IMG/VR virus record: IMGVR_UViG_2778261452_000004 | Span: 1 to 20,333 of that record | From: a virus | Lineage: Duplodnaviria > Heunggongvirae > Uroviricota > Caudoviricetes | Length of the DNA: 20,333 nucleotides | Reading direction: 5' to 3' (one strand) | Made by a program: the position numbers and the translations under genes | The notes under the pieces: generated by a model | What the model was told of the DNA's origin: nothing | Seen by the model: the letters and a program-made list of their open reading frames with translations, nothing else | The model's database searches: none | Part shown: positions 3,607 to 20,333 of the stretch, piece by piece | Numbering within the stretch: position 1 is the stretch's first letter | Layout of the letters: every line of letters starts with the position of its first letter

Positions 3607-4149
3607 TCAAGCCGTTTTTTGAGCGAATGATTCTCGCATAGGAATGTATAGCGCATACTCAGCAACGGCCAACCAATTAGCAATTCGCTTTTCGCATGTG
3701 CTAAAACACCACTCTGGGTGTGCATCATTTAGCAATTCAGCCATTTTGCGTTTGGTCATCCCCCGCCCCTCATACCGTTGACGAAGGACGCTAATCAATC
3801 CTGGATGCTCTGCCAGCACCTCACTTATGACCCGATCAATACATAACGCCTCTGCATCAGTACAATGCGCCAGCCAGCTCTTTTGCTTACCGTTAATCAT
3901 ATCCCGCAAAAAAGCCTCAAGTTCAGACTTGTTCAGACCTGCTTTTTTCATCCTCCGGAGCGCCTCGTTAATTGCCGTTTTTGTCAGCTTTTTAGAGGCC
4001 AACAACTGGTTGAACATATTCCCCGTCTTACCGCCGCCAATATACGACCAGCGCCCCCACATGCGCAGTTTTCCCTGAATCCAGACACTTTCCAGCGTGG
4101 TGAGACGAAGGTGTTCCCCGCTTTTGCCTGTATTTGTTGGGTAAATCAT
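3607..4149 (-). CDS. Putative late-gene antiterminator Q, 180 aa
   Basis: Track ORF 3607..4269 trimmed to ATG at 4149, which overlaps the upstream stop as ATGA. Call rests mainly on position (last gene before terminator and lysis genes, after YbcO-like gene) plus a weak recollection of Q-like sequence; not verified. Confidence 0.5.
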   Translation of the reverse strand: MIYPTNTGKSGEHLRLTTLESVWIQGKLRMWGRWSYIGGGKTGNMFNQLLASKKLTKTAINEALRRMKKAGLNKSELEAFLRDMINGKQKSWLAHCTDAEALCIDRVISEVLAEHPGLISVLRQRYEGRGMTKRKMAELLNDAHPEWCFSTCEKRIANWLAVAEYALYIPMRESFAQKTA

Positions 4150-5501: not shown

Positions 5502-5657
5502 TTACTCCTCAGGTTCGTAAGCTGTGAAGACAGCGACCTCCGTCTGCCCGGTTCGGATTCGTACCTCGCAGAGGTCTTTCCTCGTTACCAGCGCCGTCAC
5601 AATGACGGTTAAACAGATGACGATCAGGGCGATTAACATCGCCTTTTGCTGCTTCAT
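5502..5657 (-). CDS. hok: Hok/Gef-family type I toxin, 51 aa
   Basis: MKQQKAMLIALIVICLTVIVTALVTRKDLCEVRIRTGQTEVAVFTAYEPEE matches HokD/Gef-type toxins as recalled. Track ORF 5502..5714 carries an in-frame 19-codon upstream extension; the canonical Hok start is ATG at 5657. Confidence 0.85.
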   Translation of the reverse strand: MKQQKAMLIALIVICLTVIVTALVTRKDLCEVRIRTGQTEVAVFTAYEPEE

Positions 5658-5830
5658 AGCCTGCTTCTCCTTGCCTTTCGACACGTAAGAGGCTAACCTA
5701 CATGTGCAAAGCATGAAATTGGCCTCAGATTAATGTTAAGCGTCTTGCCGGACGCGTAATGTTAACTGGGGCTTTTCTCTATCTGCCTTTTGGTGTTCAT
5801 GCCTGAGGCAGATAGCCTCAAGCACCCGCA
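5658..5830. promoter_or_regulatory. hok leader region; expected site of promoter, mok start and antisense Sok RNA (plus strand)
   Basis: Inference from the known hok/sok architecture; the region holds several hairpins (gcgtcttgccggacgc at about 5740-5755; atctgcct…aggcagat at about 5782-5816). Sok ends not determined. Confidence 0.3.
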
Positions 5831-6214: not shown

Positions 6215-7312
6215 ATGACAATTTCATATATTCCTATTCTGAAAGCGAAACGTTCTGAGTTATCAGCTTTATCGCAGCTATCCATTGAAAAGAAATCAAA
6301 AATTTTGCCATTACTCGAAATTGAACCAGTGCCAATTGACCCTGATTCAGGTATTGCCTTAAAGAGTTATAACGAGACTCTTATAGAGTTCGGAAAGAAA
6401 GTCTCAAAATCTTGCTCAGATATGCAAGGTGTTTATATTGATGGATTATTAATTGAAGAGCATTTTATTTCTCCTGAAGATCATTACCCTATAATAAATG
6501 CGGTTAATCAAGTTAGAGATATGGGGATAAGAGTTATTCCTGTCAGTTCACCAACTCGCCCATCTAACTATAAAAGAGCGATTGATGAATTAATGCAGAA
6601 TGAAATATGCTTGAGATTAACCACGTTAGATCTGGTTAACCCACAATTAATAACGCATTACATTAATCATCTGGGAATTCCTTTATCAAATATTGATATA
6701 ATTATTGACTTAAGAGATGAGTTAACCGAGGATAAACTTAATTCCGGCGAACTATATACTTTGGCAATGGGATTGATAAACAATCTGGCGCACCTCAATG
6801 AATACAGAAAAGTGATTCTTTCTGGGGGTTCATTTCCTACAGATCTCAGTGATATTTCTGTTGGTCTATATTCTCAACCTCGAATCGAGTGGATTTTATG
6901 GCAGAGTTTAATGAATAGAAAAGAACTTGCCAGAAATGTGATTTATAGTGATTATGGAGTACAGCACCCCGACTTTAATAGGCTTTCGACGCGATTCCCT
7001 AGCGTATCTGCCAGCGTCAGATACTCTGGAGATAATGACTTTTGGGTATTTCGAGGAAGAGTAGCTAATCGCTTTGGTTATGAACAATATGGTAAACATA
7101 GTGAGGATATTCTTGCTCATCGAGAATATTCAGGGCCTACATTCTGTGCGGGAGATAGAGACATAGAATATTATGCAAACGAGTATCAAGCCTACAAAGC
7201 CAATCCCTCTGGTAACTATAAATTTGGTAGCCCAGAGGTATGGCGTAGGATTGGGCAAAACCATCACATAACTAAGGTTGTTGAGCAACTCGCCACTCTT
7301 TACGGGCTTTAA
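6215..7312 (+). CDS. 'Beta protein'/sce7725-family protein, 365 aa; candidate defence-module component
   Basis: Complete track ORF with AAGG ribosome-binding site; strongly AT-rich, A/T-ending codons unlike the flanking phage genes; N-terminus MTISYIPILKAKRSELSAL resembles the Beta_protein family as recalled (unverified). Confidence 0.8.
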   Translation: MTISYIPILKAKRSELSALSQLSIEKKSKILPLLEIEPVPIDPDSGIALKSYNETLIEFGKKVSKSCSDMQGVYIDGLLIEEHFISPEDHYPIINAVNQVRDMGIRVIPVSSPTRPSNYKRAIDELMQNEICLRLTTLDLVNPQLITHYINHLGIPLSNIDIIIDLRDELTEDKLNSGELYTLAMGLINNLAHLNEYRKVILSGGSFPTDLSDISVGLYSQPRIEWILWQSLMNRKELARNVIYSDYGVQHPDFNRLSTRFPSVSASVRYSGDNDFWVFRGRVANRFGYEQYGKHSEDILAHREYSGPTFCAGDRDIEYYANEYQAYKANPSGNYKFGSPEVWRRIGQNHHITKVVEQLATLYGL

Positions 7313-11556: not shown

Positions 11557-11979
11557 TTAATGAACAATGACAGAATCGTCGGAAGAACCGCCGCCGCTGA
11601 AATGCGCTTTCCGGTAAACGGCCTGGACTGCATCATCATGCGCATCAATTGCCGTACTTAACGCTTCCTGCGCCGCCAGTAATGCACGGCGTTCCAGGGT
11701 ATCGAAGATGCAGAGTCGGTGACGCAACTCGCGCGGAAGGATTGCCAGAATTGCTGGGATCAGCTTCTGAATTTTTTCTCTTTGCGTTTTCGTTTCACCT
11801 TTCAACCAACGGTGATAGATATTCTGCTGATTGTTCCAGTCCTTGCCTGGAACCAGGGGCAATTCGCCGCCCCCCTGGCGCAGATATTCTTCAGTAATTG
11901 CATTGGCTACCCATGCCTGCCCTTTTTCGGCTGCCAGGGCAAACAACACTGATTCGATGTGCTCATGCTTGATTTTCAT
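11557..11979 (-). CDS. ydaT: YdaT-like protein (Rac), 140 aa
   Basis: Complete 140-aa track ORF directly downstream of the Cro-like ydaS; length and sequence match Rac YdaT as recalled. Confidence 0.8.
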   Translation of the reverse strand: MKIKHEHIESVLFALAAEKGQAWVANAITEEYLRQGGGELPLVPGKDWNNQQNIYHRWLKGETKTQREKIQKLIPAILAILPRELRHRLCIFDTLERRALLAAQEALSTAIDAHDDAVQAVYRKAHFSGGGSSDDSVIVH

Positions 11980-12001
11980 GAATCATTTGCCTCTTGATGT
12001 T

Positions 12002-12298
12002 TCAGGTATGATCAAATGAGGATTTGTTACTGTCATTTAGTTGCTTCACTGACATATTCTGCGAACAACATGCCGAACGTCGTAAATATGACCAGTCAAT
12101 ATCAGGACGAAGCTCTTCGCACAGAACCTCACCTCTTGTTGCTCGTTCAATTGCTGGACATCTCTCGGCAGGCAATTGACGTACCCCTTTGATCCATTGA
12201 TTTACGCTTGGAGGTGATACACCTAAAAGCCTAGCCATTGCTGATTGCCCACCGACAACAGCACAAGCTTGCTTGAATGAATAGTTCTCTTTTTTCAT
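12002..12298 (-). CDS. ydaS: YdaS-like Cro-type HTH regulator, 98 aa
   Basis: HTH segment QACAVVGGQSAMARLLGVSPPSVNQWIKG; divergent from the repressor gene across an operator-bearing intergenic region. Confidence 0.85.
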   Translation of the reverse strand: MKKENYSFKQACAVVGGQSAMARLLGVSPPSVNQWIKGVRQLPAERCPAIERATRGEVLCEELRPDIDWSYLRRSACCSQNMSVKQLNDSNKSSFDHT

Positions 12299-12327
12299 CG
12301 AATGAACTCCAAAAACACACAGAAATA

Positions 12328-12393
12328 TTAGGCGACGCCTAACATAAATGTCAATAGGCTATGCCTAATGCGATAAAGGTAGGGATTGCCTAA
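12328..12393. promoter_or_regulatory. OR-like operator cluster between racR and ydaS (three TTAGGC-N3-GCCTAA-type palindromes)
   Basis: Seen directly: ttaggcgacgcctaa (12328-12342, perfect 15-bp palindrome); ataggctatgcctaa (12354-12368); weaker gtagggattgcctaa (12379-12393); centres about 25 bp apart. Confidence 0.5.
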
Positions 12394-12421
12394 TACAATG
12401 AGCATAGGAGAATATTAAGCA

Positions 12422-12898
12422 ATGCTTAGTGGTAAAGACTTAGGCCGAGCGATAGAGCAGGCCATTAACAAAAAAATCGCATCGGGATCCGTCAAATCAA
12501 AGGCGGAGGTCGCACGCCACTTCAAAATCCAACCACCATCAATTTATGACTGGATTAAGAAAGGCTCCATAAGTAAAGATAAACTTCCAGAATTATGGCG
12601 TTTCTTTTCTGATGTTGTTGGTCCAGAGCATTGGGGGCTTAACGAATACCCCATACCAACCCCCACCAATTCAGATACAAAAAGTGAACTTTTAGATATA
12701 AACAACCTTTATCAAGCAGCCTCTGATGAAATAAGAGCGATTGTAGCTTTCCTGTTATCTGGAAATGCTACAGAACCAGATTGGGTTGACCACGATGTTC
12801 GCGCCTACATAGCAGCGATGGAAATGAAAGTGGGTAAGTATCTGAAAGCTCTAGAATCTGAACGGAAAAGCCAGAACATCACAAAAACTGGAACTTAA
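12422..12898 (+). CDS. racR: Prophage repressor RacR-like (HTH, no peptidase domain), 158 aa
   Basis: N-terminal HTH; divergent to the Cro-like gene; operator clusters on both sides; length equals Rac RacR as recalled. Confidence 0.85.
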   Translation: MLSGKDLGRAIEQAINKKIASGSVKSKAEVARHFKIQPPSIYDWIKKGSISKDKLPELWRFFSDVVGPEHWGLNEYPIPTPTNSDTKSELLDINNLYQAASDEIRAIVAFLLSGNATEPDWVDHDVRAYIAAMEMKVGKYLKALESERKSQNITKTGT

Positions 12899-12912
12899 AC
12901 TTATATGGTCTG

Positions 12913-12940
12913 ACGGAAAACTCCTGGATTCCGTTATTTA
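12913..12940 (+). terminator. Possible terminator after racR
   Basis: acggaa-(10-nt loop)-ttccgt followed by tattta; loop is long, so the call is weak. Confidence 0.3.
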
Positions 12941-12974
12941 ACCCCCCATCACTTTCTCCTGTCGCCATCACCTA

Positions 12975-13033
12975 TTAGGTTACGCCCAAAACATTAGGCA
13001 TAGCCTATTGACAATCAATTAGGCATTACCTAT
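12975..13033. promoter_or_regulatory. OL-like operator cluster downstream of racR, upstream of ydaG/ydaF
   Basis: Seen directly: ttaggttacgcccaa (12975-12989), ttaggcatagcctat (12994-13008), ttaggcattacctat (13019-13033); same half-site as the OR-like cluster. Confidence 0.45.
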
Positions 13034-13205
13034 AGTTCCAGCATACCACCCACCCCGCCCCACAGAACGCCGGGCAATACTTCGAGTTACCAGGCAGTGG
13101 TAAGGGGTTAAGTAGCCAGCCCGAGGCGTATGAACATGACGGCGGGATTCAAATTTTGCAGTGCAGCAGTTAGTTCCGCCACCCGGCGTTAAGGGGAGAG
13201 ATAAG

Positions 13206-13340
13206 ATGGTGCATTACGAAGTAGTTCAGTATTTGATGGATTGTTGCGATATCACTTACAGCCAGGCTGTACAGGCTCTACGCAGCAACGACTGGGATCT
13301 CTGGCAGGCAGAAGCCTCTATCCGCAACAACAAAATGTGA
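13206..13340 (+). CDS. ydaG: Small protein YdaG-like, 44 aa (MVHYEVVQYLMDCCDITYSQAVQALRSNDWDLWQAEASIRNNKM)
   Basis: Under the track threshold; found by reading: ATG at 13206 with GGGGAGAG upstream, stop TGA 13338-13340; size and position match Rac ydaG as recalled. Confidence 0.6.
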   Translation: MVHYEVVQYLMDCCDITYSQAVQALRSNDWDLWQAEASIRNNKM

Positions 13341-13350
13341 GGTGCGAAAA

Positions 13351-13506
13351 ATGCAAAAAATCGACCTCGGCAATAACGAATCCCTGGTGTGCGGCGTGTT
13401 CCCCAACCAGGATGGAACGTTCACCGCCATGACATATACCAGAAGCAGGACGTTTAAAACTGAAAGTGACGCACGCCGCTGGTTAGTCAAAACATTAGCG
13501 GAGTAA
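13351..13506 (+). CDS. ydaF: Small protein YdaF-like, 51 aa (MQKIDLGNNESLVCGVFPNQDGTFTAMTYTRSRTFKTESDARRWLVKTLAE)
   Basis: Under the track threshold; ATG at 13351 with GAGGTG upstream, stop TAA 13504-13506; size and position match Rac ydaF as recalled. Confidence 0.6.
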   Translation: MQKIDLGNNESLVCGVFPNQDGTFTAMTYTRSRTFKTESDARRWLVKTLAE

Positions 13507-13507
13507 C

Positions 13508-14017
13508 TTATTCGAAGCGCTTAGTGCAAGGGTTCCATGCTTCAAATATTAGTTCCTCATAGTCGGGATCGAGTTGAAAATGGGAGCTATTGCCTAATGA
13601 ACACTTTCTAACAAAACGAATTATTCCCATCCTGACAAGCAAGGCTGTACTTTGATTTTCAGGACAAAGCGTAAGTAGGTCATTGAACTGGAGGAATGAT
13701 TCAATAATACGAATTTGTTCTGCATTTAGCGAATTCAGATTTTTTAGCATTTTGCGCTTTTTTACAAAATCCCGAATCAGGTAGAACATTCTCAAGAAAA
13801 GGATTACTACTCTATCAAGGATTAAAGTCGAGACAAAGGCTATGCTGAAGCAAAATAGCTGCATGGAATATGGAATGGCGCTTTTCTTTTCCAGATACTC
13901 TGACAAGTTTTCTGGTACCAACATTAATATCAGAAAAAATATAACTATAGTAATCATAAACCGACTAACTGATTTTTCGGCAAAGAATTTTGCCAATGTT
14001 AAAAGACTTTCTAACAT
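13508..14017 (-). CDS. sieB: Superinfection exclusion protein SieB-like membrane protein, about 169 aa
   Basis: Track ORF 13508..14140 trimmed to ATG at 14017; two strongly hydrophobic helices; position between the pL-proximal small genes and kil corresponds to sieB in Rac/lambda. Start uncertain. Confidence 0.65.
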   Translation of the reverse strand: MLESLLTLAKFFAEKSVSRFMITIVIFFLILMLVPENLSEYLEKKSAIPYSMQLFCFSIAFVSTLILDRVVILFLRMFYLIRDFVKKRKMLKNLNSLNAEQIRIIESFLQFNDLLTLCPENQSTALLVRMGIIRFVRKCSLGNSSHFQLDPDYEELIFEAWNPCTKRFE

Positions 14018-14292
14018 TTCAATAACTCTCAACTGTAAGGGTATTGAAATGTTAACACAAGCTCTCGCTGTAGGGGTATAGCAGAGACCACCGAAGCCCG
14101 GAGGTGGTGAAATAAAACCGGGCACAACACGAAGGCGCATTTCCGATATCCATAAAGAGTCGGTTTTGTCTGTTAAATTTAAATGGTGGGAGTGCGCCTC
14201 CGGTTGTAAATAACGACATTGCTGTGTGTAGTCTTGGCGGCATCAGTTTTTTCTTGAAGTTCGGCTGATGTCCGCCCCTTTTTAAAGTGAAT

Positions 14293-14422
14293 TTTGTGAT
14301 GCGGTGAATGCGGCTAAGCGCACGCGGAACAGTTAAAAGCATCAGTGTTATGGGTGGATTATCCGGCGTTAATTGTTAACTGGTTAACGTCACCTGGAGG
14401 CACCAGGCACCGCATCACAAAA
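14293..14422. repeat. Pair of perfect 15-bp inverted repeats bracketing about 100 bp upstream of kilR, with nested GTTAAC palindromes
   Basis: Seen directly: ttttgtgatgcggtg (14293-14307) and its exact reverse complement caccgcatcacaaaa (14408-14422); between them cgttaattgttaactggttaacg. Confidence 0.4.
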
Positions 14423-14443
14423 CTCATTGTTGAGGGCGCGATA

Positions 14444-14632
14444 ATGAAAACGTTATTACCAAACGTTAATACGTCTGAAGGTTGTTTTGAAATTGGTGTC
14501 ACTATCAGTAATCCTGTATTTACTGAAGAGGCCATTAACAAAAGAAAACACGAACGAGAGTTATTAAATAAAGTATGCATTGTTTCAATGCTGGCCCGTT
14601 TACGTCTGATGCCAAAAGGATGTGCACAATGA
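14444..14632 (+). CDS. kilR: KilR-like small protein (Rac Kil, FtsZ inhibitor family), 62 aa
   Basis: Track ORF 14345..14632 trimmed to ATG at 14444 (GAGGG upstream); position immediately 5' of recE side genes as in Rac; sequence recognised from memory with moderate certainty. Confidence 0.55.
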   Translation: MKTLLPNVNTSEGCFEIGVTISNPVFTEEAINKRKHERELLNKVCIVSMLARLRLMPKGCAQ

Positions 14633-14820
14633 ATCCAGTATTTGCACTTATTCTGACGGTTTTTCTTGTTTCCGGAGAGCCAGTTGATATTGCAGTCAGT
14701 GTTCACAGAACAATGCAGGAATGTATGGCAGCAGCAACCGAACAGAAAATTCCAGGCAACTGTTATCCGGTCGATAAAGTTATTCACCAGGATAATAACG
14801 AAATCCCGGCAGGATTTTAA
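14629..14820 (+). CDS. Small protein with hydrophobic N-terminus, 63 aa
   Basis: Track ORF 14575..14820 trimmed to ATG at 14629, overlapping the kilR stop (ATGA); occupies the ydaE/racC position of Rac but was not recognised as either. Confidence 0.45.
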   Translation: MNPVFALILTVFLVSGEPVDIAVSVHRTMQECMAAATEQKIPGNCYPVDKVIHQDNNEIPAGF

Positions 14821-14913
14821 AACAGCACCGTAATAAATATCCAGTTTCATTCTTATATGTCAGCAATGGCAGAGATTTGTTCACCCTTAAATCTGTGATG
14901 AGGTTTATCAATA

Positions 14914-17547
14914 ATGAGCACTGATAAAGAAGAATTTGCACTATATTGCGAAGCAAAAAATGACAAAGTAAGAAAACGCCTAGGAATTAAAGGTGGTTTT
15001 TACTGGACTACAGCAAAAAAATTATCTGTTGCAATCTCCCGCTGCATTACCGCAATGGATGACAACGATTATGATGAAGACGACTTTAAAAAACCCGTCC
15101 GCGTCAATTTGCCCGTTGTTGACGACCTTCCGCCAGAAGGCGTGTTTGATACTGAATTCTGCAACCGCTATGAAAAAGGCGGGAAAGATGGCATCACAAT
15201 GACATTTATCGGCCCTTCCCCCTCTGTTCAAGACAAATCAGCCAGCACTGATAATACCAACATCAACGGCGAAGACATGACTGAGATTGAGGAGAGCATG
15301 CTTCTACCTGTCTCCGGTCAGGAACTGCCCATTCGTTGGCTTGCTCAACACGGCAGCGAAAAACCAGTAACGCACGTTTCACGCGACGAACTCCAGGCAT
15401 TACACATTGCACGGGCTGAAGAACTACCGGCTGTTACTGCCCTGGCTGTTTCCCACAAAACCAGCCTGCTCGACCCGCTGGAAATTCGCGAACTCCACAA
15501 ACTGGTTCGTGACACTGACAAAGTTTTCCCTAATCCTGGTAATTCAAACCTGGGACTGATAACTGCTTTTTTCGAAGCATACCTGAACGCTGACTACACC
15601 GATCGAGGACTGCTGACAAAAGAGTGGATGAAGGGTAATCGTGTTTCACACATCACTCGCACGGCTTCCGGTGCTAATGCTGGCGGCGGAAACCTCACCG
15701 ATCGCGGCGAAGGTTTCGTACACGATCTGACGTCACTGGCGCGCGACGTAGCCACTGGCGTACTGGCCCGTTCAATGGATCTGGACATCTATAACCTTCA
15801 TCCGGCACACGCTAAACGCATTGAGGAAATTATCGCTGAAAATAAACCGCCCTTTTCTGTTTTCCGCGACAAATTCATCACCATGCCTGGCGGGCTGGAT
15901 TATTCCCGCGCCATCGTGGTTGCGTCCGTAAAAGAAGCACCAATTGGGATCGAGGTCATCCCCGCGCACGTCACTGAATATCTGAACAAAGTACTGACTG
16001 AAACCGATCATGCCAACCCTGATCCGGAAATCGTGGATATTGCCTGCGGTCGCTCCTCTGCCCCGATGCCGCAGCGAGTAACAGAAGAAGGAAAACAGGA
16101 TGATGAAGAAAAACCGCAACCATCTGGAACAACGGCAGTTGAACAGGGAGAGGCTGAAACAATGGAACCGGACGCAACTGAACATCATCAGGACACGCAG
16201 CCGCTGGATGCTCAGTCACAGGTAAATTCTGTTGATGCGAAATATCAGGAACTGCGGGCAGAACTCCATGAAGCCCGGAAAAACATTCCATCAAAAAATC
16301 CTGTCGATGCCGATAAATTGCTTGCTGCATCACGTGGTGAATTTGTTGACGGAATTTGCGACCCGAACGATCCGAAATGGGTAAAGGGGATCCAGACTCG
16401 CGATTGTGTGTACCAGAACCAGCCAGAAACGGAAAAAACCAGCCCAGATATGAATCAACCTGAGCCAGTAGTGCAACAGGAACCGGAAATAGCCTGCAAT
16501 GCCTGCGGCCAGACTGGCGGGGATAACTGCCCTGACTGTGGTGCGGTGATGGGCGACGCAACATACCAGGAAACATTCGATGAAGAGAGTCAGGTTGAAG
16601 CTAAGGAAAATGATCCGGAGGAAATGGAAGGCGCTGAACATCCGCACAATGAGAATGCTGGCAGCGATCCGCATCACGATTGCAGTGATGAAACTGGCGA
16701 AGTCGCAGATCCCGTAATCGTAGAAGACATAGAGCCAGGTATTTATTACGGAATTTCGAATGAGAATTACCACGCGGGTCCCGGTATCAGTAAGTCTCAG
16801 CTCGATGACATTGCTGATACTCCGGCACTATATTTGTGGCGTAAAAATGCCCCCGTGGACACCACAAAGACAAAAACGCTCGATTTAGGAACTGCTTTCC
16901 ACTGCCGGGTACTTGAACCGGAAGAATTCAGTAACCGCTTTATCGTAGCACCTGAATTTAACCGCCGTACAAACGCCGGAAAAGAAGAAGAGAAAGCGTT
17001 TCTGATGGAATGCGCAAGCACAGGAAAAACGGTTATCACTGCGGAAGAAGGCCGGAAAATTGAACTCATGTATCAAAGCGTTATGGCTTTGCCGCTGGGG
17101 CAATGGCTTGTTGAAAGCGCCGGACACGCTGAATCATCAATTTACTGGGAAGATCCTGAAACAGGAATTTTGTGTCGGTGCCGTCCGGACAAAATTATCC
17201 CTGAATTTCACTGGATCATGGACGTGAAAACTACGGCGGATATTCAACGATTCAAAACCGCTTATTACGACTACCGCTATCACGTTCAGGATGCATTCTA
17301 CAGTGACGGTTATGAAGCACAGTTTGGAGTGCAGCCAACTTTCGTTTTTCTGGTTGCCAGCACAACTATTGAATGCGGACGTTATCCGGTTGAAATTTTC
17401 ATGATGGGCGAAGAAGCAAAACTGGCAGGTCAACAGGAATATCACCGCAATCTGCGAACCCTGTCTGACTGCCTGAATACCGATGAATGGCCAGCTATTA
17501 AGACATTATCACTGCCCCGCTGGGCTAAGGAAAATGCAAATGACTAA
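14914..17547 (+). CDS. recE: Exodeoxyribonuclease VIII RecE, 877 aa
   Basis: Full-length track ORF; sequence recognised as Rac RecE (C-terminal nuclease domain); GAGGT ribosome-binding site; overlaps recT start. Confidence 0.95.
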
Positions 17548-18349
17548 GCAACCACCAATCGCAAAAGCCGATCTGCAAAAAACTCAGGGAAACCGTGCAC
17601 CAGCAGCAGTTAAAAATAGCGACGTGATTAGTTTTATTAACCAGCCATCAATGAAAGAGCAACTGGCAGCAGCTCTTCCACGCCATATGACGGCTGAACG
17701 TATGATCCGTATCGCCACTACAGAAATTCGTAAAGTTCCGGCGTTAGGAAACTGTGACACTATGAGTTTTGTCAGTGCGATCGTACAGTGTTCACAGCTC
17801 GGACTTGAGCCAGGTAGCGCCCTCGGTCATGCATATTTACTGCCTTTTGGTAATAAAAACGAAAAGAGCGGTAAAAAGAACGTTCAGCTAATCATTGGCT
17901 ATCGCGGCATGATTGATCTGGCTCGCCGTTCTGGTCAAATCGCCAGCCTGTCAGCCCGTGTTGTCCGTGAAGGTGACGAGTTTAGCTTCGAATTTGGCCT
18001 TGATGAAAAGTTAATACACCGCCCGGGAGAAAACGAAGATGCCCCGGTTACCCACGTCTATGCTGTCGCAAGACTGAAAGACGGAGGTACTCAGTTTGAA
18101 GTTATGACGCGCAAACAGATTGAGCTGGTGCGCAGCCTGAGTAAAGCTGGTAATAACGGGCCGTGGGTAACTCACTGGGAAGAAATGGCAAAGAAAACGG
18201 CTATTCGTCGCCTGTTCAAATATCTGCCCGTATCAATTGAGATCCAGCGTGCAGTATCAATGGATGAAAAGGAACCACTGACAATCGATCCTGCAGATTC
18301 CTCTGTATTAACCGGGGAATACAGTGTAATCGATAATTCAGAGGAATAA
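17540..18349 (+). CDS. recT: Recombinase RecT (single-strand annealing protein), 269 aa
   Basis: Track ORF 17483..18349 trimmed to the [16 protein letters not shown]… start at 17540, which overlaps the recE stop within ATGACTAA. Confidence 0.95.
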
Positions 18350-18405
18350 TTCAGCCTGGCGGTGTAATGCACCGCCAACTTGAAATATTTTTTATGAGAA
18401 AAATT

Positions 18406-18600
18406 ATGAGATATGACAATGTTAAACCATGTCCATTTTGTGGTTGTCCATCAGTAACGGTGAAAGCCATTTCAGGATATTACCGAGCGAAGTGTAACGG
18501 ATGCGAATCCCGAACCGGTTATGGTGGAAGTGAAAAAGAAGCACTCGAAAGATGGAATAAACGAACCACTGGAAATAATAATGGAGGTGTTCATGTATAA
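18406..18600 (+). CDS. ralR: Restriction alleviation protein RalR (Lar), 64 aa
   Basis: MRYDNVKPCPFCGCPSVTVKAISGYYRAKCNGCESRTGYGGSEKEALERWNKRTTGNNNGGVHV recognised as Rac Lar; Cys4 zinc ribbon; track ORF 18367..18600 trimmed to ATG at 18406. Confidence 0.9.
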   Translation: MRYDNVKPCPFCGCPSVTVKAISGYYRAKCNGCESRTGYGGSEKEALERWNKRTTGNNNGGVHV

Positions 18601-18802
18601 AATTACCGCCACTATTGAAAAGGAAGGTGGCACTCCTACTAACTGGACAAGATATTCAAAATCTAAACTAACGAAATCAGAATGCGAAAAAATGCTCTCA
18701 GGTAAAAAAGAAGCAGGCGTTTCCAGAGAGCAGAAAGTAAAACTGATAAATTTTAATTGCGAGAAACTTCAGTCCTCGAGAATTGCATTGTATTCAAATT
18801 AA
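18593..18802 (+). CDS. ydaC: YdaC-like small protein, 69 aa
   Basis: Track ORF 18521..18802 trimmed to ATG at 18593 (GGAGGTG 6 nt upstream), overlapping the ralR stop. Confidence 0.75.
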   Translation: MYKITATIEKEGGTPTNWTRYSKSKLTKSECEKMLSGKKEAGVSREQKVKLINFNCEKLQSSRIALYSN

Positions 18803-18813
18803 AACTTCATAGC

Positions 18814-18829
18814 TGATTATTAATAATCA
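18814..18829. repeat. 16-bp perfect A/T palindrome upstream of xis
   Basis: Seen directly: tgattattaataatca. Confidence 0.3.
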
Positions 18830-18880
18830 ACATCGGGCGTCAATTTCAGTCTAACATTGGCGCCTGCCAGAGGTGATGCG

Positions 18881-19096
18881 ATGGCACAAGTAATCTTTAA
18901 TGAAGAGTGGATGGTTGAATACGGCCTGATGCTTCGCACTGGTCTGGGGGCCAGACAAATTGAAGCATACCGCCAGAACTGTTGGGTGGAGGGCTTCCAC
19001 TTCAAACGAGTATCTCCTTTAGGTAAGCCAGACAGCAAACGAGGGATTATCTGGTACAACTATCCAAAGATAAATCAGTTTATCAAAGACTCATGA
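18881..19096 (+). CDS. xisR: Excisionase (Rac XisR/YdaQ-like), 71 aa
   Basis: Track ORF 18857..19096 trimmed to the [18 protein letters not shown]… start at 18881 (GAGGTG upstream); immediately 5' of the integrase gene. Confidence 0.85.
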
Positions 19097-19097
19097 T

Positions 19098-20333
19098 ATG
19101 TCTAAATTACCAACAGGTGTCGAGATTAGAGGTAGATACATTCGCATCTGGTTCATGTTTCGAGGAAAACGATGTCGGGAAACATTAAAAGGCTGGGAGA
19201 TTACAAACAGTAATATTAAAAAGGCCGGAAATTTAAGAGCGCTGATAGTTCATGAAATAAACTCCGGTGAATTTGAGTATTTAAGACGTTTTCCCCAGTC
19301 CAGCACTGGGGCAAAAATGGTGACAACGAGAGTCATAAAAACGTTCGGAGAGCTTTGTGATATCTGGACAAAAATTAAAGAGACAGAGTTAACAACAAAC
19401 ACAATGAAGAAAACGAAATCACAATTAAAAACACTCAGAATAATAATTTGTGAAAGTACCCCGATATCACATATTCGTTATAGCGATATCTTAAACTACC
19501 GGAATGAACTGCTGCATGGAGAAACGCTTTACCTGGATAATCCAAGATCCAACAAAAAAGGAAGAACCGTGCGCACAGTTGATAACTATATCGCCCTGCT
19601 CTGTTCGCTGTTGCGTTTTGCGTATCAGTCGGGATTTATATCAACCAAACCATTTGAAGGAGTAAAAAAATTACAGCGAAACAGAATAAAGCCTGATCCG
19701 TTATCTAAAACAGAATTCAATGCATTAATGGAAAGTGAAAAAGGACAGAGCCAGAACTTGTGGAAATTTGCCGTTTACTCAGGACTTCGTCACGGGGAAC
19801 TGGCAGCTCTGGCGTGGGAGGATGTGGATCTCGAAAAGGGAATAGTGAATGTCAGAAGAAACCTGACGATACTTGATATGTTCGGTCCCCCAAAAACAAA
19901 TGCCGGGATCCGAACAGTAACACTACTGCAGCCTGCTCTTGAAGCACTGAAGGAGCAATACAAACTGACCGGGCATCATCGCAAAAGCGAAATCACCTTT
20001 TATCATCGGGAGTACGGCAGAACCGAAAAGCAAAAACTGCATTTTGTTTTCATGCCCAGGGTGTGTAACGGAAAACAAAAACCTTATTACTCGGTAAGCA
20101 GTTTGGGGGCAAGGTGGAATGCAGCAGTAAAACGTGCTGGTATTCGCCGCCGTAATCCGTACCATACGCGGCATACTTTTGCCTGCTGGCTGTTGACGGC
20201 AGGAGCGAACCCGGCATTTATAGCCAGCCAAATGGGGCATGAAACTGCGCAGATGGTGTATGAAATTTACGGTATGTGGATTGATGACATGAACGACGAA
20301 CAGATAGCCATGTTGAATGCGCGGTTATCGTAG
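19098..20333 (+). CDS. intR: Tyrosine site-specific integrase (Rac IntR-like), 411 aa
   Basis: Full-length track ORF ending with TAG at 20331-20333; C-terminal catalytic segment with conserved R/H-x-x-R/Y context (…HTRHTFACWLL…VYEIYGMW). Confidence 0.95.
   Translation: MSKLPTGVEIRGRYIRIWFMFRGKRCRETLKGWEITNSNIKKAGNLRALIVHEINSGEFEYLRRFPQSSTGAKMVTTRVIKTFGELCDIWTKIKETELTTNTMKKTKSQLKTLRIIICESTPISHIRYSDILNYRNELLHGETLYLDNPRSNKKGRTVRTVDNYIALLCSLLRFAYQSGFISTKPFEGVKKLQRNRIKPDPLSKTEFNALMESEKGQSQNLWKFAVYSGLRHGELAALAWEDVDLEKGIVNVRRNLTILDMFGPPKTNAGIRTVTLLQPALEALKEQYKLTGHHRKSEITFYHREYGRTEKQKLHFVFMPRVCNGKQKPYYSVSSLGARWNAAVKRAGIRRRNPYHTRHTFACWLLTAGANPAFIASQMGHETAQMVYEIYGMWIDDMNDEQIAMLNARLS

Follow-up and report, generated by a model that had tools for sequence, protein, structure and literature searches.

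Two clusters of RacR operator sites around racR in a Rac-like prophage: a published right operator and a predicted, conserved left operator

The racR locus and its two clusters of sites

The 20,333-bp stretch of viral DNA analyzed here (IMG/VR record IMGVR_UViG_2778261452_000004, positions 1 to 20,333; the window) is a Rac-like lambdoid prophage of Escherichia coli, and this report concerns its repressor gene, racR, and the two clusters of short palindromic sites on either side of it. The genes ydaS and ydaT are divergent from racR, and on the plus strand racR is followed by ydaG-ydaF-kilR-recE-recT-xis-int, i.e., the gene order of an early-left operon. The divergent pair racR/ydaS flanks four sites and the PydaS promoter, as in an immunity region. 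Positions 11900-13400 are 99.9% identical to chromosomal loci annotated ydaT, ydaS, racR, and ydaF and have matches in 3,795 of 5,426 complete E. coli genomes, and the gene names proposed in an earlier note on this DNA are correct. For RacR itself, Pfam gives just a sub-threshold HTH_17 match, and the Peptidase_S24 domain of CI/LexA-type repressors is absent.

A scan of the whole window for TTAGGC-N3-GCCTAA with up to two mismatches yielded six matches, compared with 0.53 expected, all of them inside two clusters of 66 and 59 bp (12328-12393 and 12975-13033). Since none of 100 dinucleotide shuffles reached six matches, a chance origin of the sites is ruled out. The earlier note had placed six sites at exactly these coordinates, where they are the sole matches at this threshold, and had rightly described the best one, TTAGGCGACGCCTAA, as a perfect palindrome (7+1+7). 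Its spacing of about 19 to 25 bp holds for the second cluster (19 and 25 bp start to start) but not for the first (26 and 25 bp). The six sites stand, but a fourth right site and a lone half-site had been missed (TTAAGCAATGCTTAG and TTAGGC, respectively); both are published and conserved in relatives. The tally is better stated as four sites plus a half-site at the right operator (OR) and two strong sites plus a weak one at the left operator (OL). The clusters share a perfect 22-bp inverted repeat (12349-12370 and 12992-13013), which comprises one site and a TTGACA hexamer, and their corresponding sites are 640 bp apart, in agreement with the earlier estimate of about 650 bp.

Just two strong promoters were found near racR in a consensus scan, and both point outward (Table 1). 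One is PydaS; the other, a predicted early-left promoter (PL) with 11 of 12 consensus matches, is the top promoter match in 13000-20333 and is aimed at ydaG, ydaF, kilR, recE, recT, xis, and int. The layout is the same at both, with one site adjoining the -35 hexamer (about -42/-43) and another filling the spacer and the start of the -10 hexamer (about -17). Occlusion by sites in these two positions is classical for OR1/OR2 and OL1/OL2 of lambda. At the sequence level, a second cluster of the same operator motif covers a predicted early-left promoter beyond the repressor gene.

Table 1. Operator sites, promoters, and genes of the immunity region and left operon (window coordinates; TSS, transcription start site; HTH, helix-turn-helix; mismatches to TTAGGC-N3-GCCTAA)
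Feature	Coordinates	Strand	Mismatches	Remarks
Right-operator site 1 (published O1), TTAGGCGACGCCTAA	12328-12342		0	PydaS spacer and -10; centre about -17
Right-operator site 2, ATAGGCTATGCCTAA	12354-12368		1	adjoins PydaS -35; centre about -43; within 22-bp repeat
Right-operator site 3, GTAGGGATTGCCTAA	12379-12393		2	overlaps -35-like TTGCCT of leaderless racR promoter
Right-operator site 4, TTAAGCAATGCTTAG	12415-12429		3	over racR ATG and leaderless TSS
Lone TTAGGC half-site	12440-12445	+		inside racR; mentioned in PMC9638921
Weak left site (OL3-like), TTAGGTTACGCCCAA	12975-12989		2	centre about -61 of predicted PL
Left-operator site (OL2-like), TTAGGCATAGCCTAT	12994-13008		1	adjoins -35, overlaps its first T; centre about -42
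Left-operator site (OL1-like), TTAGGCATTACCTAT	13019-13033		2	PL spacer and first 3 nt of -10; centre about -17
PydaS (PR analogue)	12325-12354	-		-35 TTGACA 12354-12349, 18-bp spacer, -10 TAATAT 12330-12325
Leaderless racR promoter (published PracR3)	12386-12413	+		-35-like TTGCCT, 16-bp spacer, -10 GAGAAT; TSS = A of ATG
Predicted PL analogue	13008-13036	+		TTGACA-17-TATAGT; expected TSS near 13043
racR	12422-12898	+		158-aa repressor; N-terminal HTH and C-terminal oligomerisation domain, not S24
ydaS (Cro analogue)	12002-12298	-		Pfam YdaS_toxin 2.6e-31, P22_Cro 3.4e-9, HTH_3
ydaT (CII analogue)	11557-11979	-		Pfam YdaT_toxin 1.8e-11; PMC11879457
ydaG	13206-13340	+		first gene of left operon
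ydaF	13342-13506	+		second gene of left operon
recE	14914-17547	+		left operon
recT		+		left operon
xis		+		left operon
int	19098-20333	+		left operon; up to window end

Published evidence on the right cluster and conservation of the left one

The right cluster corresponds to the published RacR operators, and nothing about it is new. For the Rac prophage of E. coli K-12, three GCCTAA/TTAGGC repeats in the 123-bp racR-ydaS intergenic region were described together with three RacR-DNA complexes in electrophoretic mobility shift assays, enrichment in chromatin immunoprecipitation (ChIP)-qPCR, and a PydaS reporter repressed by RacR (Krishnamurthi et al. 2017, PMC5700373). A later study (NAR 2022, PMC9638921) mapped the TSS of PydaS (TTGACA/TAATAT), whose activity is abolished by a -10 mutation, as well as three racR promoters, one of them leaderless with the -10 hexamer GAGAAT. 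The DNase I footprints of RacR in the same work showed that O1 at PydaS is protected first, at the lowest RacR concentration, and that the region of right site 3 is protected, too; they led to the monomer motif ATTAGGC, the consensus T/ATAGGC-n3-GCCTAT/A, and a set of named operators including one over the ATG. Autoinhibition of the racR promoter by RacR has also been reported. The follow-up literature describes four inverted repeats and shows that RacR elutes as an octamer in size exclusion chromatography, assigned to four dimers on the intergenic region (PMC11014345).

The window and K-12 Rac have the same half-sites, consensus, and PydaS promoter (TTGACA-18-TAATAT) in the right region, all nine substitutions being located outside the half-sites, and the half-sites of right site 1 are invariant in 39 distinct E. 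coli-type module sequences. The site over the racR ATG has three mismatches in the window versus one or two in Mixta, Morganella, Klebsiella, Proteus, Achromobacter, Pigmentiphaga, and Pseudomonas phages, where it is always located at -7 from the repressor ATG. Judged by its sequence, the poorer site in E. coli Rac suggests a weakened autorepression that is specific to the Escherichia lineage. At the racR promoter, the centers of site 3 (about -36, overlapping the -35-like hexamer) and site 4 (+1) are placed in a way that suggests repression, and RacR appears to be a pure autorepressor.

The left cluster, by comparison, is a conserved, predicted left operator that covers the putative promoter for recombination and excision genes and is apparently new to the literature. 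The RacR papers from 2017, 2019, 2022, 2023, 2025, and 2026 deal with the racR-ydaS intergenic region only and mention neither a downstream site or promoter nor looping. A full-text search for RacR in combination with ydaG, ydaF, left operator, or looping returned only the paper on the CP-933P prophage of E. coli O157:H7 (Jurenas et al. 2021, PMC8630535), with the limit that subscription journals are thinly covered and an older description is possible. Searches for ChIP-exo, DNA affinity purification sequencing, or systematic evolution of ligands by exponential enrichment retrieved nothing on RacR, the sbcA literature contained nothing decisive, and no operator features are annotated in the GenBank records of related phages.

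The left site at 12994 fits the footprint-derived RacR consensus exactly, and the one at 13019 is off at one position (ACCTAT). In K-12 the left region is 99% identical to that of the window, and the sole change within the three sites affects the weak one. For a broader comparison, RacR-family loci from species-representative genomes and IMG/VR were reduced to 114 distinct ones, 110 of which had enough downstream sequence, and the OL module was defined as the 43-bp pattern site-TTGACA-N5-site-TAxxxT. Of the 110 loci, 108 have this module downstream of the repressor gene and in the same orientation, among them representatives of Escherichia, Mixta, Morganella, Proteus, Klebsiella phage KpF5, Achromobacter, and Pigmentiphaga, and the sites are accordingly conserved in related prophages, a point on which the earlier note had made its reading depend. 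The two exceptions are L059, which keeps both sites and has the -10 hexamer TATAGC, and L008, a decayed Klebsiella copy that has also lost the PR-like -35 hexamer. The PL hexamers are kept across genera. Among eight diverse loci (two E. coli types, Mixta, Morganella, Proteus, the unassigned IMG/VR contig L128, Achromobacter, and Pigmentiphaga), pairwise identity averages 0.80 over the 43 bp of the module versus 0.30 to 0.31 in each 43-bp flank. The minor-allele fractions of the E. coli-type loci are 0.003 to 0.02 in the half-sites, 0.10 to 0.27 in the central N3, and 0.17 to 0.33 at the bases between the sites. The reciprocal test holds as well: among 117 viral stretches retrieved by the exact module pattern alone, a RacR-type N-terminal domain is encoded upstream, in the same orientation, in 111; four of the remainder are too short and two lack the domain (111 of 113 assessable).

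Two cryptic E. coli copies with altered -10 hexamers, L059 (TATAGC at PL; module at stop+96) and L086 (TAATAC at PydaS), retain all operator sites. From their sequences, these changes look like promoter-down mutations that would detoxify the prophage.

Control of the left operon by RacR and alternative explanations

The early-left operon of Rac is repressor dependent according to published work on RacR loss. When RacR was lowered by the C.Csp231I protein or by CRISPR interference, ydaG, ydaF, kilR, ydaE, and racC were upregulated 40- to 70-fold or more, and recE, recT, ralR, xisR, and intR showed the same pattern of derepression. The last two genes rose about 100-fold only with RacR below its natural level; the authors described them as "far away" from racR and named no cis element. 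Lysogens in which RacR is expressed and YdaS is undetectable keep the left arm silent. A RacR-controlled PL at 13008-13036 would most simply account for the derepression of the left arm.

It is likely that the two clusters are OR and OL of a Rac-type immunity region and are bound by RacR dimers via the N-terminal HTH domain. In the proposed mechanism, dimers would bind the 15-bp sites, and pairs 25 to 26 bp apart would occlude PydaS and PL. Occupancy of the OR sites at about -17 and -43 of PydaS shuts off the Cro-like ydaS and the CII-like ydaT, and negative autoregulation is conferred by two further OR sites, centered near -36 and +1 relative to the leaderless racR start. The OL pair, 25 bp apart at -17 and -42 of PL, would exclude RNA polymerase, with the weak third site at -61, and RacR bound there would silence the same-strand operon ydaG, ydaF, kilR, recE, recT, ralR, xis, and int. 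We infer this occupancy of OL and the activity of PL, along with cooperative binding and looping between the operators. A loop is proposed because RacR is octameric in solution and the clusters are only 640 bp apart; by analogy to lambda CI, dimer pairs bound at OR and OL are probably joined in this way by the RacR octamer. A more far-reaching scheme is put forward tentatively as one possibility: in place of the four dimers currently proposed for the racR-ydaS intergenic region, the octamer might bridge two OR and two OL dimers in the 640-bp loop and thereby couple the silencing of ydaST, kilR-recET-xis-int, and racR. In this scheme, one operator and DNA-binding domain module would be common to phages of Enterobacterales, Burkholderiales, and Pseudomonas, which would differ only in the repressor tail, either an SOS-cleavable S24 domain or the noncleavable tail of RacR.

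The arrangement resembles lambda in several respects. The divergent repressor and cro genes share a multipartite operator, and the repressor mRNA is leaderless; a second operator covers the early-left promoter, which lies beyond the repressor gene and points in the same direction; and adjacent Rac sites are about 25 bp apart, with repressor octamers possible. Lambda operators are spaced 23 to 24 bp apart, and the 20 bp between OL2 and OL3 resemble the 19-bp step in the left cluster of Rac. In contrast, the Rac sites are 15 bp long and of another sequence, the Rac OR has four of them, OL is 640 bp from OR compared with about 2.3 to 2.4 kb in lambda, and YdaS reportedly does not repress racR. 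The lambda OR/OL logic of the earlier note is supported for operators, promoters, and gene order, whereas RacR has no LexA-like S24 autocleavage domain and is reported only as an autorepressor. Another parallel is the PaaR2/YdaS/YdaT switch with OR and PL933P/OL in CP-933P (PMC8630535). This sister lambdoid prophage shares the ydaS-ydaT arrangement, its repressor gene is likewise leaderless, and its OL/PL, for which there is experimental support, is laid out as in Rac. The -35 and -10 hexamers at this PL are identical to those of PR, three OL operators are present, the repressor is octameric, and looping has been proposed. CP-933P differs from Rac in that PaaR2 and its 18-bp palindromes of the GTTTAGTAA type are unrelated to RacR and its operators, that a toxin-antitoxin pair is inserted between repressor gene and OL, and that PL was tested there by reporters, whereas the PL of Rac is predicted.

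Several points weigh against the proposed role of the left cluster and against looping. Our literature search found no direct binding, footprint, ChIP, or TSS result for the left cluster, and both strong OL sites are mismatched (one and two positions), so that their affinity may be below that of O1. The third left site is probably marginal: Escherichia loci retain TTAGGT as the left half but show a drifting right half (GCCCAA, GCTCAA, GATCAA, ACCCAA, etc.), and nothing corresponds to it in the other genera. The derepression of the left arm could be partly indirect, i.e., mediated by YdaS or YdaT or by prophage excision or replication. The discoverers of the octamer interpret it as four dimers that all sit in the intergenic region (PMC11014345). 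The OR-OL distances of 591, 614, 629, 640, ~1200, ~1600, ~1900, and ~2150 bp in relatives (591 to 640 bp in enterics and 1.2 to 2.2 kb elsewhere) show no consistent helical phase, which is neutral for looping in itself and gives it no help. Finally, the analogy to lambda is incomplete, as RacR lacks S24 and is published as repressing, not activating, its own promoter.

A different function of the left cluster would be that of a target mainly of the Cro-like YdaS, or of competition between YdaS and RacR, serving to turn the early-left operon down in the lytic phase and not to silence it in lysogens. In lambda and CP-933P, repressor and Cro analogue use the same operators, PL933P responds to both, and YdaS, with its P22_Cro and HTH_3 domains, reportedly competes with RacR for the intergenic operators. 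Such binding would add to that of RacR rather than exclude it. As the chief role of the cluster it is unlikely, because the OL sites match the consensus footprinted with RacR, the module accompanies the RacR-type N-terminal domain in nearly all assessable contigs, and the left arm remains silent in lysogens that contain RacR but no detectable YdaS. It is very unlikely that the left sites act chiefly as a roadblock or terminator substitute against read-through from racR into the toxic kilR/recET operon: a pure roadblock needs neither the 11/12 consensus promoter interleaved with the sites nor hexamers kept across genera. It is true that racR is transcribed toward the left cluster and that its stop codon is followed by just a weak hairpin (12907-12943, ACGGAA...UUCCGU then UAUUUAA; -11 kcal/mol, z = -1.4), and a RacR roadblock at OL is a possibility that is compatible with the operator role.

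The perfect 22-bp inverted repeat that connects the clusters could also have arisen when the OR promoter region was partly duplicated in inverted orientation or copied by gene conversion, which would make the left cluster a nonfunctional by-product. Rac is indeed a defective prophage, and promoter-down changes occur in some copies (TATAGC in L059; TAATAC at PydaS in L086). An origin without function is extremely improbable in view of the module's retention across genera amid unalignable flanks (0.80 versus 0.30 identity) and in isolated phages such as Klebsiella KpF5. Moreover, variation is restricted to noncontact columns, and the module heads the left operon even where 1 to 2 kb of other genes are inserted after the repressor gene.

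The lambda-like OR/OL arrangement is thus published for its OR half, and the OL/PL half is expected, apparently undescribed, and strongly supported by comparative evidence. As a predicted RacR operator, the left cluster would fill a gap in the regulatory map of Rac, namely, the cis element for left-arm derepression upon RacR depletion, and the predicted PL/OL provides a concrete target for studies of how Rac excises, how kilR exerts its toxicity, and how recET is activated. Cis-acting sbcA mutations, known from classical work, are a related target. The octamer could be re-read as the looping species. The whole arrangement stays inside the lambdoid paradigm, half known and half expected, which makes it useful to specialists and not surprising.

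Distant relatives, leader, and neighboring features

The prophage repressors of Achromobacter and Pigmentiphaga (L010:2501-3598 and L011:2501-3406) have a RacR-like N-terminal domain (73 to 74% identity) that is fused to Peptidase_S24 (E = 1e-13 to 4e-15) and are presumably RecA cleavable. At both loci the motif is retained together with the OL module and the site across the ATG, with OL 1.2 to 2.2 kb from OR. Because these S24-tailed relatives retain the motif, the DNA-binding domain and its operators are portable as a module between different induction and oligomerisation tails, and the domain swap appears to have kept immunity specificity. In the Pseudomonas phages vB_PaeS-D14H and VW-6S (L372:3001-3852 and L373:3001-3861), repressors of 283 to 286 aa that are annotated as CI share about 50% identity in the N-terminal domain, and only the ATG-overlapping site plus variant palindromes were seen in the intergenic region. 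The isolated Klebsiella phage KpF5 (L371, 2977-4373) has three OR sites and, 1.4 kb further downstream behind an inserted DUF450 gene, two OL sites.

Extra genes of 1.1 to 1.4 kb between repressor gene and OL module were observed in KpF5 (DUF450), L011 (3406-4614), and L128. The insert of Pigmentiphaga contains small membrane- or lipoprotein-like open reading frames (ORFs) in the position of the moron slot that is held by rexAB in lambda. A further viral contig, L343 (reverse complement; 3732-3804 and 6681-6720), exhibits an OR-like motif cluster in which one site covers the ATG, and an OL module follows 2.9 kb downstream. Compared by tblastn at E = 1e-3, the repressor of this contig (173 aa) was not similar to the N-terminal domain of RacR, and the contig is one of the 2 of 117 that lack this domain.

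Within the window, the leader of the predicted PL (13043-13205, ~160 nt) starts C rich and G poor (CCACCCACCCCGCCCCAC) and has a folding z of -2.2 versus shuffles; on these sequence properties it could be a Rho-utilisation or antitermination element. The known silencing of kilR by Rho bears on this leader. The leaders of Mixta and one IMG/VR relative have the motif GGACGCCCACG(A/C)AGTAGC in common. No convincing plus-strand intrinsic terminator was found in a scan of the left arm. The hairpin behind racR was rejected as an intrinsic terminator, its z value being not significant, and terminator-like calls at 12345-12325 and 13007-12995 are merely the palindromic operators. A YdaT box at OL was likewise dismissed: the spacer contains AATCAA without a TTGATT partner 6 bp upstream (three of six matches, by eye), and these bases vary in E. 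coli-type loci.

An RNA element in place of DNA sites was discarded as well, since the only Rfam matches in the window lie elsewhere. Both are gathering-level matches on the minus strand, namely, the RalA antitoxin small RNA (18599-18777, 225 bits) and the sok antisense RNA of a hok/sok locus (5652-5827, 118 bits). Inside the left operon, the ORF in the sieB position (13508-14140) is located on the opposite, minus strand and encodes 210 aa, compared with the 162 aa annotated for sieB of K-12.

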